Source of the DNA: Escherichia virus TH43 | Sequence record: MT446414.1 | Length of the DNA: 64,000 nucleotides | Strand: one strand, 5' to 3' | Shown: one piece after another, positions 5,701 to 45,298 of the stretch | Layout: each line of letters opens with the position of its first letter | How positions within the stretch are numbered: position 1 is the first letter of the stretch | Notes under the pieces: generated by a model | What the model saw: only the letters and a program-made list of their open reading frames with translations | Told to the model about the DNA's origin: nothing | Database searches by the model: none | Translations under genes and position numbers: made by a program

Positions 5701-7193
5701 TCAGGCATTCCTTTAAGTTTCTTCAAACCACCAATAGCAGTTTTCATTTCTGGAGATACATTATCAGCCAGTTTCTGAAGCTCTGTAGCTTTCTCTATGA
5801 AGTTATTAAAGTCTTCACCATCACGAGCTTTGAATCGATTAGCTTCGTTATAGAAAGTTTTATAAGCATCAATGAAATCACGATCTGCTTGGGTACGATT
5901 CTTAATGTCCATAGCACTACCAGTAAAATCACCACTGGCACGAGCAGCTGTTAATTCACGATCAAGGTTATCCAGAACATCAGACAAAGATTTAGTGTTG
6001 TCTTTTGTATAATCAGCCATTGCATCTTTCATTGCCACAGCTTGTTTCTGGTTATGTTCGTTGTCTGCGTTAGCTTTACCTTGCTTCTTATTAGGAGCAG
6101 CAAGAGGATTTAAACCCGGAACATTAGAACGATCTTCCAGAATAGTAGCAGCCTTCTCGGCACGACTTTGATCAGTATTAAGGATACGCTGAGCAGCAGG
6201 AGAGTCCATAGCCACAGCATCAGTAACACGGAAACCGTTCTCATCGAGGAGATTAAGAGCAGAAGCTGTGTTAGCGTTATCAGCTTTAGAGTAAGCCTCT
6301 CTTAGTTCGTCTGCATTTTTAGCTGAGCGAATAGCTTCATCTTCAGCGGCAATGTCAGTCTTAACGTGTTCTGGAGTACGGTCAAAGACTTGAGGACTAG
6401 GACGACTTATCAATCCATGAACCCCACCAATAGCCCCACCGTAAGCAGCACCCATCGCACCTTCTTCTACAGCACCTTCAATGATATTAGCAAGAGTAGT
6501 GTCATCACCATATTTGTTCTGTGCTTCAGCAGCACCTACAAGAGCACCACCTTTAGCACCAGCCACTGCGTTAGATGCTACACTCTGACCAACACGACCT
6601 AGGGTAGTAGAAGCAGTGCCTGTCATCCCCGGAAGAATCTTCTGAGCTGCAAAGTTAGCACCACCAACTAAACCAGCATCAAGAACAGACTTCTCTTCAC
6701 CCTCTTCTGGAGTTTGGTCTGCATAAGCTCTACCTGTTTCACGAGCTGCAATAACAGCAGCAGCTACAGCTGGGTTAGCAACCGTAAGACCAATATCAGC
6801 GGCAACGCCAGCATACTGACCTACAGATTTACCTACACCATCTTCGATTTGAGAGAGACGTTCTTCTAGTAAGTTTTTAGAGTTGTCTTGAATACGCTTA
6901 CCGTAACTTGTCTGTGTACCAGCTAGATTTTCTCCAATCTCAACTAATCCACCAATACCTCTAGCAGCACTGGCTGCAATGTTTGCACCACCTGATTGAA
7001 TAGCGTTGGACACACCTTGGGCAAAATCACCAACCAACCCCGGTTGCTCTTCTTGTTTAGGAGCTGGAGCAGCCTCAGGAATCGTTCCACCCGCTGCTTT
7101 ATACTGTTCTCGCATCTGAGACTGTTGCTCAGGGGAGGCATTCAAATACGCAGGGCTTTTAGAAGCTTCTTCCCACGGTTTTAAGTTCGCCAT
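2775..7193 (-). CDS. large virion protein, 1472 aa (tape-measure-like or internal ejection protein)
   Basis: Very long Ala/Glu/Lys/Arg-rich coiled-coil-type protein with internal tandem repeat (ARDLVAQRRA... twice); last gene of the structural operon. Confidence 0.6.
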   Translation of the reverse strand: MANLKPWEEASKSPAYLNASPEQQSQMREQYKAAGGTIPEAAPAPKQEEQPGLVGDFAQGVSNAIQSGGANIAASAARGIGGLVEIGENLAGTQTSYGKRIQDNSKNLLEERLSQIEDGVGKSVGQYAGVAADIGLTVANPAVAAAVIAARETGRAYADQTPEEGEEKSVLDAGLVGGANFAAQKILPGMTGTASTTLGRVGQSVASNAVAGAKGGALVGAAEAQNKYGDDTTLANIIEGAVEEGAMGAAYGGAIGGVHGLISRPSPQVFDRTPEHVKTDIAAEDEAIRSAKNADELREAYSKADNANTASALNLLDENGFRVTDAVAMDSPAAQRILNTDQSRAEKAATILEDRSNVPGLNPLAAPNKKQGKANADNEHNQKQAVAMKDAMADYTKDNTKSLSDVLDNLDRELTAARASGDFTGSAMDIKNRTQADRDFIDAYKTFYNEANRFKARDGEDFNNFIEKATELQKLADNVSPEMKTAIGGLKKLKGMPEGFNPIQDAFTLNNTAKLMSNQDRGWTSLTADGFKEAAPPVLIKNPLGAAKHVLNRFRSDRARSQRESQQAANSEAIRSLARSDMEVTRARAQADEARAAMEKEPEVDDIKFKTQNDTEIEPVREPSATTVTEEISSPETSPLTARDLVAQRRALKEAEARRQEAEANRVQEEPTPEPVPQEPVTTARDLVAQRRAVAEARKRQEAEEASKAAESVPEEPIVQAEPLPTRAPKAPEVEPEPVKPATGIERLAAMSSAARQATKDRADRFARSLYTAGAKAKATAENFLSYKGDPKELMRRIRQEDQANNAERHAEMARNQLASQQGIAAAKSQRVRSSFADWVKERGLPSDIATKALRAEEKGIGGNVTSLDSLKRRSERLYQKQRDDEFNRMYEEALAENKKLDKADAPKLVDQKKELHSEINLLLDAEPLRPAQKDAMRKLMEDFVDGKFKASEKAGREDALEVGQMKDIWDGFINTYNREVNMFNKANKNSQYEAAAKHLQARQERLETLRNRAKARSDAKAAVETERQSLEAIAAQKSEMENLLKDLPESVRESQEGRTLKQLAAHHDKNSPVPPERFRSIIERIHNAESDYIDRKRRLTEAEEDAREAKWNKMYEQAEEMNRKYDIDSRVQRDKKLKEAQEAENDRMAIQRQRDDIHKRLMRSMEDKGIPKEDAEIFAGSYMDNRYSLLEKPMTPTEHQNARSRIESDISKFAKDFEKMTPIEKDIAKATGDMDGKVEVDADTSKAIEDARKVDSELKKLQDEELEMEKVRSALPEDERSQASSDILESIKKQEDDFANKAEKAFIEGKDLQELASVAEVLDRVHGADKAGNNRRFVRALQTAAENKKQYGDNPVAWFSADDYSAIAKLGAASAGGNKSRALEKIFGSTAEQAKGKLLGRDDVAKIRRVIEENPDVKIPSYKTTTRQEYLQFLEKYNDEGELKVKRGSLSDKLERSKRQAKLRVRVRAKE

Positions 7194-7258
7194 AATTTCT
7201 CCTTATAAATAAAAATGTCCTACCTCCTATATACATTATAAGAGATAGGACTTAGGTC

Positions 7259-8890
7259 TTACTGAGTCATCCAATCAGTGTTAGAAGACAAAGCACCGTT
7301 AAGTTTAGGATTGGTTGCTGAACCACCAACAGCTGCTTCAGACTCTGCTTCGAATACACCGAGAGGGTCATAGAAACCAGCAGAAGGAATAGCTCGGTTA
7401 ACAAGAGCAGTTGCACGTTTCTTGTCCATACCAGAACCAACATAAGCTTCAATAGTTGCTTTCTTAGAATCTTTAACACCTTTCTCAGCAGAAGTAGCAC
7501 CGACCGTCGCTTGTTTACGAGCATAAGACAGAGCAGCATCAGATGGACGATAACCAGCTTTAAGAGACCAAGTGTTACCTACCTTAACAAGAATGGATGG
7601 GTCTTCTGCGAAGTGTGACAAGTCATCAGCTTGCAGAGAACGGTTAGCTCCAATCTCAGCTCTTGCGGAGTTCATAATAGCCTGCATGTAAGCAGAACGA
7701 GCAGTCTGATAATCACCATCCTTAACTGCTTTGTCTGCCAAATCCAAATCTTTATGAGACTGGTTAAACAGTCCTGCCTTCTCTGCCCACTGTTTAGCAA
7801 CCGTACCTTCAGCAGTGTTCTGAGCAAGACGAACTTCTTTCGGGTTAAAGTTAAAACTTTGAGCAGCTTGTTCTGCACGGTCTGCCTTAACTTGATCACG
7901 ATAACCAATCAACTCTTTCTGTTTCTCAAACTGAGCATCAGCACGTTGTTCAGCAGCACGACGAGTTTCAGCAGCACGTTCCCGCATCGAATTCTCTTGA
8001 ATCTGTTGACGTCTGTCCCACTCTTGATTAGCACGAGCTTCGTCTTGAGCGGCTAGAGCCATCTTCTCTTGAGGACTAATCTGACGCATCTTCAGAAGAG
8101 AAGGATCACCAGCAGCTACAGCAGCAGCTACAGAATCCTGAGAGTAACCTTGTTCGATCAGGTTATCACGGTTCAGTTCTAATTGTTGTTTAGCTTCATC
8201 CTGAGATGCCATACCAGAGCCAATCTGGAATGCTTCAATCGGAGATTTACCAGACATAATAGAAAGACCCACACCCATCAATCCTGTATAGAAACTAGAG
8301 TTTTGATAGAAAGGTTGTTTCTGCATAGTCTTCCAAGCTTCTGCTGGATTCTTGGACTGTGCAACTTTAAGAATATCCTGATTCACACGTTCCTGATCAG
8401 CAGCACGAGTAGCACCACCCATACCTTCACCCTGAGGAACACCAGAAGCGATAGTATTCATGACACCTTGGGCCTGTTGTACTTGCTCAGGGGCAAACTC
8501 TTTATCTGACTCTTCAATTGGTTTAGCAGGAGCTGTAACCGGAAGAGGGTTAGAAGCAGGAGCTACGTCAGCAGGCATCATAGAGCCTTCATCACCCGGA
8601 TTAATGCCAGCATCAATACCAGCCAAACTAGTAGGAGTAGAAATACCCTGCTGTTCATAAAGACGTTGCTTGAATCCCGGATTCATCATAGCTTCTTGGT
8701 CAGCCTGTGCTTGTTCGACTGTAGCTCCTAAGACAGCAGGAAGAGCTGGACGCTGATACATAGATAAGTCAGCTGCTGGACCAGCAGGTCTGGACATGTA
8801 AGGAGAGGCCGTAACCCCTCTCTGACGATCACCATAAATCTGATTTCGCGGGTCTTGACTACGAAGATACGCGTAAGATGTTTGTTGCAT
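7259..8890 (-). CDS. virion structural protein, 543 aa
   Basis: Long ORF in the structural operon; Ala/Gln-rich; no specific motif. Confidence 0.5.
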   Translation of the reverse strand: MQQTSYAYLRSQDPRNQIYGDRQRGVTASPYMSRPAGPAADLSMYQRPALPAVLGATVEQAQADQEAMMNPGFKQRLYEQQGISTPTSLAGIDAGINPGDEGSMMPADVAPASNPLPVTAPAKPIEESDKEFAPEQVQQAQGVMNTIASGVPQGEGMGGATRAADQERVNQDILKVAQSKNPAEAWKTMQKQPFYQNSSFYTGLMGVGLSIMSGKSPIEAFQIGSGMASQDEAKQQLELNRDNLIEQGYSQDSVAAAVAAGDPSLLKMRQISPQEKMALAAQDEARANQEWDRRQQIQENSMRERAAETRRAAEQRADAQFEKQKELIGYRDQVKADRAEQAAQSFNFNPKEVRLAQNTAEGTVAKQWAEKAGLFNQSHKDLDLADKAVKDGDYQTARSAYMQAIMNSARAEIGANRSLQADDLSHFAEDPSILVKVGNTWSLKAGYRPSDAALSYARKQATVGATSAEKGVKDSKKATIEAYVGSGMDKKRATALVNRAIPSAGFYDPLGVFEAESEAAVGGSATNPKLNGALSSNTDWMTQ

Positions 8891-43494: not shown

Positions 43495-43748
43495 AGACAA
43501 ACTTCCGAGCAGCAGTTATTACGAAAGTAATAGCAGTTGGCGATGTAATGATGCAGGTTCCTCTGAACACTCGTTACATTGCCATTGACCGAATGGGTTA
43601 TGTGTGGGCTTGGAAGTGGAAGCCTACTTATAACGAACTGTTCGACGAATACCAGTGCGCTGGACCTTACATGCCAACCTTAATCGGTGTGTATGAAGAT
43701 GGTCCTTGTCGTACTCCTCAGTTAATCGAACTACCGGCGTGTGCTTAA
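43491..43748 (+). CDS. hypothetical protein, 85 aa
   Basis: ATGA overlap with upstream gene. Confidence 0.45.
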   Translation: MKTNFRAAVITKVIAVGDVMMQVPLNTRYIAIDRMGYVWAWKWKPTYNELFDEYQCAGPYMPTLIGVYEDGPCRTPQLIELPACA

Positions 43749-43749
43749 T

Positions 43750-43911
43750 ATGATTAAGTGGCTAAAGCGTGTCTTCCATTGTCATGATTGGAAGATTATT
43801 AACACCCGTCCTCTGGTCTATACAGATTCAGATGGGAACAATGACAAGGGCACACGTTACGTTATTCAGTGTAAGGTGTGTGGTGATGTTAGTCATCGTG
43901 ATGTAATCTAA
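43750..43911 (+). CDS. small zinc-ribbon-like protein, paralog 1 (53 aa)
   Basis: MIKWLKRVFHCHDW ... CKVCGD; below track cutoff. Confidence 0.45.
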   Translation: MIKWLKRVFHCHDWKIINTRPLVYTDSDGNNDKGTRYVIQCKVCGDVSHRDVI

Positions 43912-43920
43912 GGAATCATT

Positions 43921-44085
43921 ATGATTAAATGGTTCAAACGTCTATTTCATTTCCATGAGTGGGAAGATCTTTCTACTTATGAACTGACGATCACAAATAA
44001 ACTTACTGACAGAGAGCGACAAGGGTTGCGTATCTACTCTCGCTGTAAAGTGTGTGGTCTGCACAAGAAAACAGACCTGATTTAA
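43921..44085 (+). CDS. small zinc-ribbon-like protein, paralog 2 (54 aa)
   Basis: MIKWFKRLFHFHEW ... CKVCGL; AAGGA upstream. Confidence 0.45.
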   Translation: MIKWFKRLFHFHEWEDLSTYELTITNKLTDRERQGLRIYSRCKVCGLHKKTDLI

Positions 44086-44093
44086 GGGGTGTT

Positions 44094-44303
44094 ATGTTCT
44101 TTCGTAAGAAAAAGCCCGAAGATTCTGGATGTAAACACGAGTGGGTGATCACTGAAAACCTTCAAATCACTCACGCTAAAGACACTCCAGTCGAGAGAAA
44201 AGAGTCTCGTGTATCTCGTATCTGTAAACGCTGTTTGAAAATAGAACAGCATAAAGTTCCCGGTCATATCGGTCACGATGTGGCCTTGCGTATCTTCAGT
44301 TAA
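44094..44303 (+). CDS. small zinc-ribbon-like protein, paralog 3 (69 aa)
   Basis: CKHEW ... CKRC; AAGGGG upstream; track start 44052 trimmed. Confidence 0.45.
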   Translation: MFFRKKKPEDSGCKHEWVITENLQITHAKDTPVERKESRVSRICKRCLKIEQHKVPGHIGHDVALRIFS

Positions 44304-44337
44304 ACAAACTCAGCATCCTTAGCTCAATGGAGGGGTT

Positions 44338-44760
44338 TTGAAGATAGAGTTAGAATACCCCTTCGTTAATGACTGGCGATTGGGCTACTTAAGAACAAGC
44401 AGAGACGGTAGGAAGCGTGTTGATTTGTATAATACCGACACGGAGAGGACAACCATTTCTTACGCAAGATATTTAATGTCTTGTCACATAGGCAGGTACC
44501 TAACTGAAGACGAGGAGGTTGATCATATTGACAGAAATAAAACTAATGATGACATATCTAATCTTCAGATACTTTCCATAGAAAATCACAGAAAGAAGTC
44601 AACATTAGAAGCAACTACTGGAAGAACAATGATTTCAGTTGTTTGCTCTTATTGTGGAAGATCTTTTGAAAAAGAAAAGCGAAATGTTAAATATGCAAAT
44701 TCTTTTTGTAACAGATCATGTGCAGGTAAGTATAACGGTTTCAAATCTATCGGGGCGTAG
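44338..44760 (+). CDS. HNH homing endonuclease
   Basis: EVDHIDRNKTNDDISNLQILSIENHRKK is a classic HNH core, plus C-terminal CxxC ... C...C; TTG start with GGAGGGG upstream. Confidence 0.65.
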   Translation: MKIELEYPFVNDWRLGYLRTSRDGRKRVDLYNTDTERTTISYARYLMSCHIGRYLTEDEEVDHIDRNKTNDDISNLQILSIENHRKKSTLEATTGRTMISVVCSYCGRSFEKEKRNVKYANSFCNRSCAGKYNGFKSIGA

Positions 44761-44826
44761 TCTAGTGGAACAGGCAGCGAGCTTCTAACTCGCCTTACGA
44801 GGGTTCGAATCCTTCCGTCCCGACCA
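44751..44826 (+). tRNA. tRNA-Arg (anticodon UCU)
   Basis: Manual cloverleaf: acceptor CGGGGCG/CGTCCCG, D-arm GTCT-AGTGGAAC-AGGC, anticodon arm GCGAG-CTTCTAA-CTCGC, T-arm GAGGG-TTCGAAT-CCTTC, discriminator A, encoded CCA; 76 nt. Confidence 0.8.
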
Positions 44827-44837
44827 ATTTTAAACAA

Positions 44838-44952
44838 GGGCTAGTATGGGTACGGCACCAGAGTTAGTGTATCCCTGTTGAGGCAAGTGCTTTTATAACA
44901 GTGGGAATTGCTTTCTTAGTGAGCTTCTGGTTCGATTCCAGATAGTCCACCA
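44838..44952 (+). ncRNA. tRNA-like element of aberrant length (about 115 nt)
   Basis: Canonical T-arm TCTGG-TTCGATT-CCAGA and CCA end; acceptor pairing GGGCTA/TAGTCC only if the 5' end is at 44838; internal hairpin 44872-44906; no standard cloverleaf found by hand. Confidence 0.35.
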
Positions 44953-44971
44953 AATCAAATAGGAGGTGCTT

Positions 44972-45298
44972 ATGAGTTGGGGTGGTGTAATTACCTTAAC
45001 CTGTATCTTTATCGCCTGTGTAGCTCTTACAGGCTGCGTACAGCATCGTCCTGATGGATGGTGTGCATTATCGGTAGAAGGTGTCTGTGTTTCCCGTTGG
45101 CATAGCGGGGAGAAGATTCCTAGTGGTGAAATTGATATGCGTTATGCTGGTGCTTCTTGTTCCAATGGCGGTGCTGTTGACGAGAAGGCTTATGCAAAGC
45201 GTGATATGGCTACCCAAGGTGATTGGTCACGTTATGACTTCATCTCCCGTGGTGAGCTGTGTGGTGGCTCTGTGACAACAACAGGTAAGGAGTGGTGA
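44972..45298 (+). CDS. putative lipoprotein (Cys-rich)
   Basis: Signal peptide ending in lipobox-like LTGC; AGGAGGT upstream of ATG 44972. Confidence 0.5.
   Translation: MSWGGVITLTCIFIACVALTGCVQHRPDGWCALSVEGVCVSRWHSGEKIPSGEIDMRYAGASCSNGGAVDEKAYAKRDMATQGDWSRYDFISRGELCGGSVTTTGKEW

Follow-up and report, generated by a model that had tools for sequence, protein, structure and literature searches.

Background

What is encoded by a stretch of phage DNA that begins and ends like a transfer RNA (tRNA) gene and has no anticodon arm between its ends? This question is raised by an element of 115 nucleotides (nt) at positions 44838-44952 of a 64,000-nt stretch of Escherichia virus TH43 (sequence record MT446414.1; this whole stretch is hereafter called the window), which lies just downstream of a canonical tRNA-Arg(UCU) gene and an HNH homing endonuclease gene. 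An earlier sequence-only reading of this DNA had proposed that the element may be a tRNA with an insertion, a tRNA-derived pseudogene damaged by endonuclease-mediated recombination, or a tRNA-like structure acting as a processing signal or decoy. In this study, the anatomy, distribution, conservation and relatives of the element were analyzed, and on balance we consider it probable that an accessory phage gene lies here, whose product is a tRNA-like RNA that derives from a tRNA, has no anticodon and is predicted to be stable and to mimic a tRNA top half.

In recent work, the tRNA genes of phages have come to be seen as weapons against bacterial immunity that cleaves tRNAs. Non-decoding tRNA-like RNAs encoded beside phage tRNAs have had no function assigned to them since the 1970s, and species 1 and 2 of phage T4 are the classic examples. 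The element belongs with these known and unexplained small stable tRNA-like RNAs of phages, and its role is open to direct testing. It is small, has sharp boundaries and is strongly conserved, and the Escherichia coli phages in which it occurs are easy to handle; natural carriers (SU10 and the BASEL phages Bas90 and Bas91) together with close relatives that lack the element (phiEco32 and SU7) make the role of such RNAs testable; the interest of the element rests mainly on this ease of testing. Standard annotation misses such genes, and in every annotated GenBank carrier record no feature lies under the match to the element.

Anatomy and folding of the element

The element has the anatomy of a tRNA top half. 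Its acceptor stem is formed by positions 44838-44843 and 44943-44948, which pair as G-C, G-C, G.U, C-G, U-A and A-U, and because G44844 cannot pair with A44942 this stem has 6 base pairs (bp) and not 7. When G44838 is taken as position 1, the acceptor end reads G1-C72, G2-C71, G3.U70, A73 and CCA, and it is invariant in all copies. The T-loop motif GGTTCGANTCC occurs twice in the 64-kilobase (kb) window, in the tRNA-Arg and in the element, against 0.02 occurrences expected. The canonical T arm (TCTGG-TTCGATT-CCAGA), the CCA end and the pairing of GGGCTA with TAGTCC over about 115 nt, all of which the sequence-only reading had pointed out, can be read directly in the sequence (Table 1), and the T loop fits the UUCRANY consensus.

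Between these ends, a D-arm-like segment can be formed by U44847-A44860, G44848-C44859 and G44849-C44858 around an 8-nt loop (GUACGGCA), which contains GG and the polymorphic position 44852; a relaxed ARAGORN call sets the 3-bp D stem one base inward (G44848-C44859, G44849-C44858 and U44850-A44857). Such a 3-bp stem is possible, is not thermodynamically preferred and has no covariation support. The place of the anticodon arm and the variable region is occupied by about 63 nt with a long hairpin of 13 bp (44872-44905, tetraloop AAGU at 44885-44888), and this hairpin, noticed earlier at 44872-44906, was present in every fold. About 25 nt at the 5' end and about 27 nt at the 3' end are tRNA-like, and both ends look tRNA-derived; the element is real and unannotated, and its origin is probably a tRNA gene.

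Two folds have to be considered. A cloverleaf-like fold, called S1 here, has an energy of -30.4 kcal/mol and is composed of the acceptor stem, the 3-bp D-like stem with its GG loop, an interrupted arm (44861-44917), an 8-nt linker and the T arm, whereas the unconstrained optimum is a rod-like fold of -35.9 kcal/mol (z=-1.5) in which the T arm is destroyed. The motif CCAGA is present twice (44858-44862 and 44938-44942), and the T-stem strand UCUGG (44926-44930) can pair with either copy; pairing with the copy at 44858-44862 gives the rod-like minimum-energy fold. All four polymorphic sites are neutral for S1, with 44852 in the D-like loop, 44885 in the tetraloop, 44861 changing a G.U pair to A-U and 44910 changing a U.G pair to U-A. 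The change of G to A at 44861 (EP335 and 101114UKE3) breaks a G-C pair of the rod-like fold in two of six sequences and weakens only this alternative. From these folding models, a conformational switch between S1 and the rod is conceivable.

Distribution and conservation

When 50,697 phage records were searched by blastn ('distant'), the element was identified in 29 GenBank records with 96-100% identity. Its position is always directly after the tRNA-Arg locus, and the carriers that were retrieved belong to Kuravirus, Nieuwekanaalvirus (EP335) and Suseptimavirus (101114UKE3). The window itself comes from a Kuravirus-like (phiEco32-group) coliphage, and a 1-kb query around the element matched 45 phage records, nearly all of them Escherichia phages of the phiEco32 / Kuravirus group (Gordonclarkvirinae). 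The element is accessory: it is present in only some relatives and lacking in phiEco32, EK010, SU7, PAS59 and ECBP2. In phiEco32, EK010 and SU7 the CCA of the tRNA-Arg stands directly before AATCAA(A/C)(T/G)TAGGAGG, at the same distance as the CCA of the element. Exact and degenerate searches of IMG/VR returned no copy of the element, the two matches (L020 and L021) being chance ones inside a coding region, and literature searches yielded no description of it and no transcript data on it.

Conservation was counted in an alignment of 8 sequences. Four of the 115 columns are variable in the element, compared with 12 of 76 in the adjoining functional tRNA-Arg (Fisher p=0.006) and 10 of 17 in the spacer after the CCA (Fisher p=5e-8), and the interior of about 63 nt is as invariant as the tRNA-like ends. 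The invariant block spans A44837 to A44952, and divergence jumps on both sides of it, at the predicted RNA ends. The constraint on the element is thus strong and sharply bounded. Between carriers whose downstream gene diverges by 15-33%, the element differs by at most 4 nt, and its sequence is the same before three different downstream genes, namely a lipoprotein gene, an open reading frame (ORF) of 141 nt and an ORF of 177 nt. It is 100% identical in phage HC-25922 despite a scrambled upstream tRNA locus, and identical in phages without the HNH gene, such as MLP3. All four allele combinations were seen at the four polymorphic sites, which indicates recombination.

High conservation that is bounded at G44838 and at the CCA argues for purifying selection on an RNA with those ends, and not for a decaying pseudogene. 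The proposed damage by endonuclease-mediated recombination is contradicted by the same data, as the element varies less than the tRNA-Arg and the flanks and is identical where the HNH gene is lacking.

Predicted maturation and mode of action

The maturation of the RNA is proposed here from the location of the element and from what is established about tRNA biogenesis in E. coli. Neither a promoter-like nor a terminator-like site adjoins the element; it should therefore be co-transcribed with the tRNA and the small early genes, and a single early polycistronic transcript would carry both tRNA-Arg and the element. With the ACCA end and the T arm as its guides, RNase P would cleave directly after A44837 to leave G44838 as the 5' end, and the 3' end would arise by an endonucleolytic cut in the A/U-rich spacer and subsequent exonucleolytic trimming up to the CCA. 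The product would build up as a stable RNA of about 115 nt. Having no anticodon, the RNA is unable to decode; its proposed mode of action is to mimic the half of a tRNA that comprises the acceptor, the T arm and the elbow, which is the least certain step of the proposal.

The bacterial alanine identity set comprises A73, G2-C71, G3.U70, G4-C69 and G20 (PMC9976931), and three of these five elements (A73, G2-C71 and G3.U70) are present. Minihelices that consist of nothing but an acceptor stem and a T arm are alanylated by alanyl-tRNA synthetase (AlaRS) (PMC11392972). Because most of the alanine identity set is found at the acceptor end, the RNA is predicted to be an AlaRS substrate, which is plausible. 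It may further be a competitor or decoy for host proteins by which the acceptor ends or elbows of tRNAs are recognised; the tail-cleaving Cas12a3 is a published example, and other tRNA-targeting defence nucleases are candidates as well. Defences that target tRNAs, and phage tRNA countermeasures, are documented (PMC13096335, PMC10264068, PMC11555353, PMC12851939). Phage tRNAs can counter tRNA-cleaving defences (Septu, retron effectors), other defences cut tRNA tails or anticodon arms, and SegB-type homing endonucleases are statistically associated with phage tRNA genes (PMC13096335, PMC10264068, PMC11555353, PMC12851939, PMC12445682). A more specific proposal would be an alanine-chargeable, anticodon-less tRNA mimic encoded by a lytic coliphage, a mimic that serves either as a decoy against factors or immune nucleases reading acceptor ends or elbows, or as a tag-less molecule resembling transfer-messenger RNA (tmRNA) on stalled ribosomes, and that is one of a largely unannotated class including T4 rnaC and rnaD; taken as a whole this proposal is tentative and rather unlikely.

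Several observations weigh against an accessory gene for a stable tRNA mimic. Many relatives do without the element, which is therefore dispensable, and part of its near-identity across genera could be due to horizontal spread in recent times, within a recombination hot spot for which the homing endonuclease is responsible. S1 is not the thermodynamic optimum, and the z-score of the rod-like optimum is only -1.5. The stack of acceptor and T stems has 11 bp (6 + 5), the canonical one 12. No double compensatory change was found, and with 4 variable columns only, pair-count controls have no power; covariation support for the fold is absent, not negative. G4-C69 and G20 of the alanine identity set are absent, and the ends, stability and charging of the RNA are predicted ones. 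The acceptor that the metagenomic look-alikes described below have in common was a requirement of the search pattern, and their arrays are also rich in orphan T arms with different ends.

Alternative explanations

A tRNA that is unusual in shape but still decodes, having for example a short intron or a lengthened anticodon arm, might be suspected from the tRNA-resembling acceptor, D-like and T regions and from an ARAGORN run at an 80% threshold, which called a 'tRNA-Asn(GUU)' with a 22-nt intron; however, a 26-nt region of this structure barely pairs, and in that run the antisense strand of tRNA-Arg was falsely called as well. No tRNA was predicted within the interval by ARAGORN in its default, intron or -ps mode or at normal and mildly relaxed thresholds. 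With the Rfam tRNA model (RF00005), neither a search of 2.5 kb nor one of the isolated 131-nt interval gave a match at E<=10, so that no standard tRNA of 74-90 nt appeared there. An exhaustive scan for hairpins of 5 bp and 7 nt with U33 and a purine at 37 left a sole candidate, which overlaps the T arm, and no anticodon arm was found. We know of no bacterial splicing mechanism for an insert of about 63 nt and of no E. coli machinery for a 22-nt intron. With no finder call, no Rfam match and no anticodon loop, a decoding tRNA was rejected, and even one of unusual shape is extremely unlikely; the idea of a tRNA with an insertion is useful as a description of the origin of the tRNA-like ends and fails as a description of a decoding tRNA. 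A minimal tmRNA-like RNA, consisting of the tRNA-like domain alone, would be alanylated, bound by SmpB and EF-Tu, and would either rescue stalled ribosomes untagged or block host trans-translation. G1-C72, G2-C71, G3.U70, A73, CCA and the T loop UUCGAUU agree with the consensus of tmRNA, tmRNA itself is processed by RNase P and alanylated (PMC3985003), and the only Rfam matches that reach the 3' end are to tmRNA models. These partial matches are very weak (beta_tmRNA, 8.2 bits against a gathering score of 84; tmRNA_permuted, 7.7 bits against 47). L023, one of the metagenomic look-alikes, fits the Rfam tmRNA model from one end to the other, the middle being deleted (27.4 bits, below the gathering score), but this resemblance is partly imposed by the search pattern. 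The main Rfam tmRNA model did not match the element, and ARAGORN in tmRNA mode made no call, also not when the threshold was lowered to 70%. A plausible resume codon with a tag frame is missing, since the frames either enter the T arm or lack credibility. Pseudoknots were not identified; the acceptor stem is one of 6 bp, and a D stem, which tmRNA does not have, is possible. We therefore regard a minimal tmRNA as highly unlikely.

The two remaining explanations deny the RNA a function of its own. The element could be a cis-acting tRNA-like punctuation or processing signal, at which the early transcript is cut, so that it determines where the downstream mRNA starts or how stable this mRNA is, and the RNA set free would have no function. 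It does lie within an operon with no adjoining promoter-like or terminator-like site, the Shine-Dalgarno sequence of the gene that follows is 9 nt away from its CCA, and tRNA-like ends are what processing enzymes recognise. However, three phages that lack the element (phiEco32, EK010 and SU7) have the CCA of their tRNA-Arg equally distant from the same ribosome-binding site, so that the element adds no new cleavage site; a processing signal needs an acceptor and a T arm only, whereas the 63-nt interior is equally invariant, and the element is unchanged before three different downstream genes. A tRNA-like structure that acts as a processing signal or decoy, the last option of the sequence-only reading, is favoured by the evidence, and a pure processing-signal role for it is unlikely. 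A neutral relic is doubtful to a similar degree; it would be a dead rearranged tRNA gene (for example a tRNA-Gln-like one whose anticodon arm was lost) that was spread by recombination or gene conversion and not by selection. The site is a recombination hot spot, as the left HNH junctions differ between the window and YF01, HC-25922 and probably TH42 are scrambled and ECBP2 has a unique insert; the 3' end is homologous to a T4-like tRNA-Gln, recombination is indicated by the allele combinations given above, and the element is dispensable. Yet the tRNA-Arg is nearer to the endonuclease site and is more variable (12/76 vs 4/115), divergence jumps at both predicted RNA ends, where repeated conversion tracts would not all stop, the flanking gene is 15-33% divergent between carriers, and all four changes keep the tRNA-like fold.

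Other candidates were tried and rejected. Protein coding was dismissed because no ORF of at least 30 amino acids (aa) overlaps the element, as was an 11-codon ATG frame (44846-44881), both of whose polymorphisms are non-synonymous. An antisense or small-RNA role was rejected on finding no complementarity longer than 11 nt to the rest of the window and no match in 5,426 E. coli genomes. A repeat matching at 10 of 11 positions between the tRNA-Arg and the element (AGCGAGCTTCT / AGTGAGCTTCT) is within chance expectation.

The locus and the HNH cassette

The features of the element and its surroundings are listed in Table 1. The tRNA-Arg(UCU) is the only tRNA in the entire window, and ARAGORN, Rfam and Pfam HNH_3 bear out its earlier placement and the 10-nt overlap (44751-44760) with the end of the HNH ORF, stop codon included. 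In Bas91 and YF01 the HNH gene is annotated as 'homing endonuclease' or 'HNH endonuclease'. Within the spacer between the tRNA-Arg and the element, A44837 (predicted position -1) is invariant, and the other bases differ between HNH-type and other phages.

Table 1. Coordinates of the tRNA-like element, its parts and the neighbouring features in the window
Feature	Position	Strand	Evidence
tRNA-like element, 115 nt; predicted mature RNA from G44838 to CCA	44838..44952	+	Conserved block; 29 records, 96-100% identity
Acceptor 5' strand GGGCUA	44838..44843	+	Sequence; all pairs invariant
D-arm-like segment	44847..44860	+	Proposed fold S1; relaxed ARAGORN call
Long irregular arm in place of the anticodon arm	44861..44917	+	Folds; hairpin scan
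T arm UCUGG / UUCGAUU / CCAGA	44926..44942	+	Sequence; motif statistics; invariant
Acceptor 3' strand UAGUCC (44943-44948), discriminator A44949 and encoded CCA (44950-44952)	44943..44952	+	Sequence
19-nt 5' remnant of ancestral Kuravirus tRNA-Arg, cut in the D loop by the HNH cassette	44314..44332	+	Alignment with intact tRNA-Arg of MLP3 and SU10
HNH homing-endonuclease ORF, 140 aa, TTG start	44338..44760	+	ORF list; Pfam HNH_3, 27.5 bits (cut-off 24.8)
Canonical tRNA-Arg(UCU), HNH-associated sequence variant	44751..44826	+	ARAGORN; Rfam tRNA, 52.9 bits
11-nt spacer, tRNA-Arg to element	44827..44837	+	Alignment of carriers
Variable spacer, Shine-Dalgarno AGGAGG (44961-44966), then phage lipoprotein gene (ATG 44972)	44953..45298	+	Pfam Phage_lipoprotein, 123 bits

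The alignments indicate that it is the ancestral tRNA-Arg upstream, and not the tRNA-like element, that was truncated by the HNH cassette. The remnant of the ancestral gene has 19 nt in the window and 30 nt in YF01 (region 70-110 of the retrieved stretch), so the left junctions differ. The cassette brought a divergent yet complete tRNA-Arg(UCU), which replaced most of the ancestral gene. Full-length matches to this cassette-type tRNA-Arg were found in 8 records with 93-100% identity, and an HNH or homing-endonuclease gene lies under the match in every record annotated at the site (Bas91, O18-011 and YF01). The cassette resembles a homing endonuclease that brings along a copy to replace the gene that it disrupts.

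Further rearrangements were observed at the tRNA-Arg locus. In phage HC-25922, a structure of 102 nt (606-707 of the retrieved stretch, z=-4.5) occupies the place where a normal tRNA-Arg is expected. It has a 10-bp outer stem around a cloverleaf with a 7-bp acceptor, a canonical CUUCUAA anticodon loop (UCU) and a T arm, has neither D stem nor CCA, and is not called by ARAGORN. Next (723-748) comes the usual ribosome-binding sequence, to which a piece from the 3' part of the HNH-type tRNA-Arg is joined; the element, which is intact, lies downstream of it. TH42 probably has the same scrambled arrangement. In ECBP2, an insert of 99 nt follows the CCA of the tRNA-Arg (1258-1356 of the retrieved stretch) and forms a long, very stable hairpin (-44.4 kcal/mol, z=-5.0) that ends in GGGGCUACCA; this insert is unrelated to the element, and no other phage record was found to have a copy of it.

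Upstream of the HNH cassette, three small early ORFs (44094-44303, 43921-44085 and 43741-43911) have CxxC...CxxC-like motifs and similar N-termini (MIKWFKRLFH.. / MLNMIKWLKRVFH..), and by these motifs they look like paralogous small zinc-ribbon-type proteins. A Pfam search with a single ORF of this run gave no match.

Look-alikes in viral and metagenomic contigs

A gapped pattern requiring the acceptor sequence of the element, the T loop and a length of roughly 100-130 nt was used to search for similar genes. The search gave eight long tRNA-like genes, which lie in 2 viral and 6 metagenomic contigs; in 185,579 cellular genomes there was no such gene. All eight have a paired T stem and a seventh acceptor pair that the pattern did not force, and six of them lie within or beside phage tRNA arrays. 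Three (L022, L146 and L148) have cloverleaf folds in which the central arm has no anticodon-type loop, and the other five (L023, L144, L145, L147 and L149) have a second, internal T arm.

The double T-arm genes are 113-122 nt long (L023, 7523-7637, minus strand; L149, 221-337; L147, 1515-1627, minus strand; L145, 7109-7224, minus strand; L144, 1684-1805). Their outer acceptor has G3.U70 and ACCA, and the inner T arm is followed by a stem of 6-7 bp whose loop is often ACCA. In L022, the stretch 7140-7360 contains a tRNA-like gene of 105 nt with a 7-bp acceptor containing G3.U70, and this gene scores 29.4 with the Rfam tRNA model against a threshold of 29. It has a promoter-like sequence of its own upstream (TTGACT..GATAAT), and the palindrome TGTCTAGACA is repeated twice there.

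Because the ends were imposed by the pattern and orphan T arms are common, we do not claim homology with the element, and an alanine-type family is not established. A broader alanine-type pattern was rejected as too unspecific to define a family, since it mostly returned ordinary tRNA-Ala, tRNA-Tyr and other sequences ending in UCCACCA; some of its matches are probably 3' fragments of tmRNA. The look-alikes are taken only as evidence suggesting that non-decoding tRNA-like genes are common in phage tRNA clusters.

The arrays contain other unusual genes as well. In L023 (7646-7792 and 6006-6136, both on the minus strand), array tRNAs have large insertions, one of which places 86 nt within the T-arm region. 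Many orphan T arms that end in an NCCA-type sequence and escape ARAGORN were seen in L023, L144, L145, L147 and L148. This suggests that non-canonical tRNA-like genes in phages are widely under-annotated. Suppressor-type tRNAs were also observed, one with the anticodon UUA in L145 (9870-9944, minus strand, called 'tRNA-Stop') and one with CUA in L149 (910-985, called tRNA-Pyl), and their anticodons hint at stop-codon recoding in the phages of these two arrays.

Comparison with known systems

Mimicry of tRNA parts is known from other systems, such as the 3' tRNA-like structures of plant RNA viruses and the modules of the bacterial Y RNA YrlA, which engage host tRNA enzymes (PMC8127992, PMC7749636, PMC4201824). 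The plant-virus structures are pseudoknotted 3' ends of genomes, and the YrlA modules are internal, the termini of that RNA forming a Ro-binding stem. The element differs from both in being a separate small gene of a DNA phage with a conventional acceptor helix, and it has no Rfam match to those families. With the tRNA-like domain of tmRNA it shares the restriction to a top half, G1-C72, G2-C71, G3.U70, A73, CCA, the T loop UUCGAUU and the absence of an anticodon. However, tmRNA has about 360 nt against 115 nt, and the element has no mRNA-like frame, no identified pseudoknots and an acceptor stem of 6 bp.

The probable evolutionary source of the ends of the element is the tRNA-Gln of Jiaodavirus (T4-like Klebsiella phages). 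The 3' 33 nt of the element, which comprise the T arm, the acceptor 3' strand and the first trailer bases, are 91% identical to the 3' end of this tRNA-Gln, and the 5' strand AGGGCUA of the element resembles UGGACUA of the tRNA. Compared with this tRNA, the element lacks the discriminator G, the old A72 serves as discriminator and the acceptor stem is shorter; the fourth pair, A-U in the tRNA-Gln, is G.U and has become the third pair of the element; and the anticodon arm CCGGC-CUUUGAC-UCCGG is gone.

The closest analogue of the element is the pair of T4 RNAs rnaC (species 1, 139 nt) and rnaD (species 2, 119 nt), whose roles are still unknown (PMC3014915) and neither of which has an Rfam family. 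They have no detectable homology to the element, as the search of phage records returned only Kuravirus-like copies and the 3' ends of tRNA-Gln genes. T4 has two RNAs where there is one here, the endonucleases come from different families, and the annotated rnaC has no terminal CCA, whereas the element ends in ACCA and has G3.U70. The T4 rnaC nevertheless has a canonical T arm (CCGGG-UUCGAAU-CCCGG) with imperfect acceptor-like pairing and is not called by tRNA finders, and the order of genes is alike in the two phages: the segB homing endonuclease, tRNA-Arg(UCU), rnaD and rnaC follow one another on the same strand in T4, as do the HNH gene, tRNA-Arg(UCU) and the element in the window.

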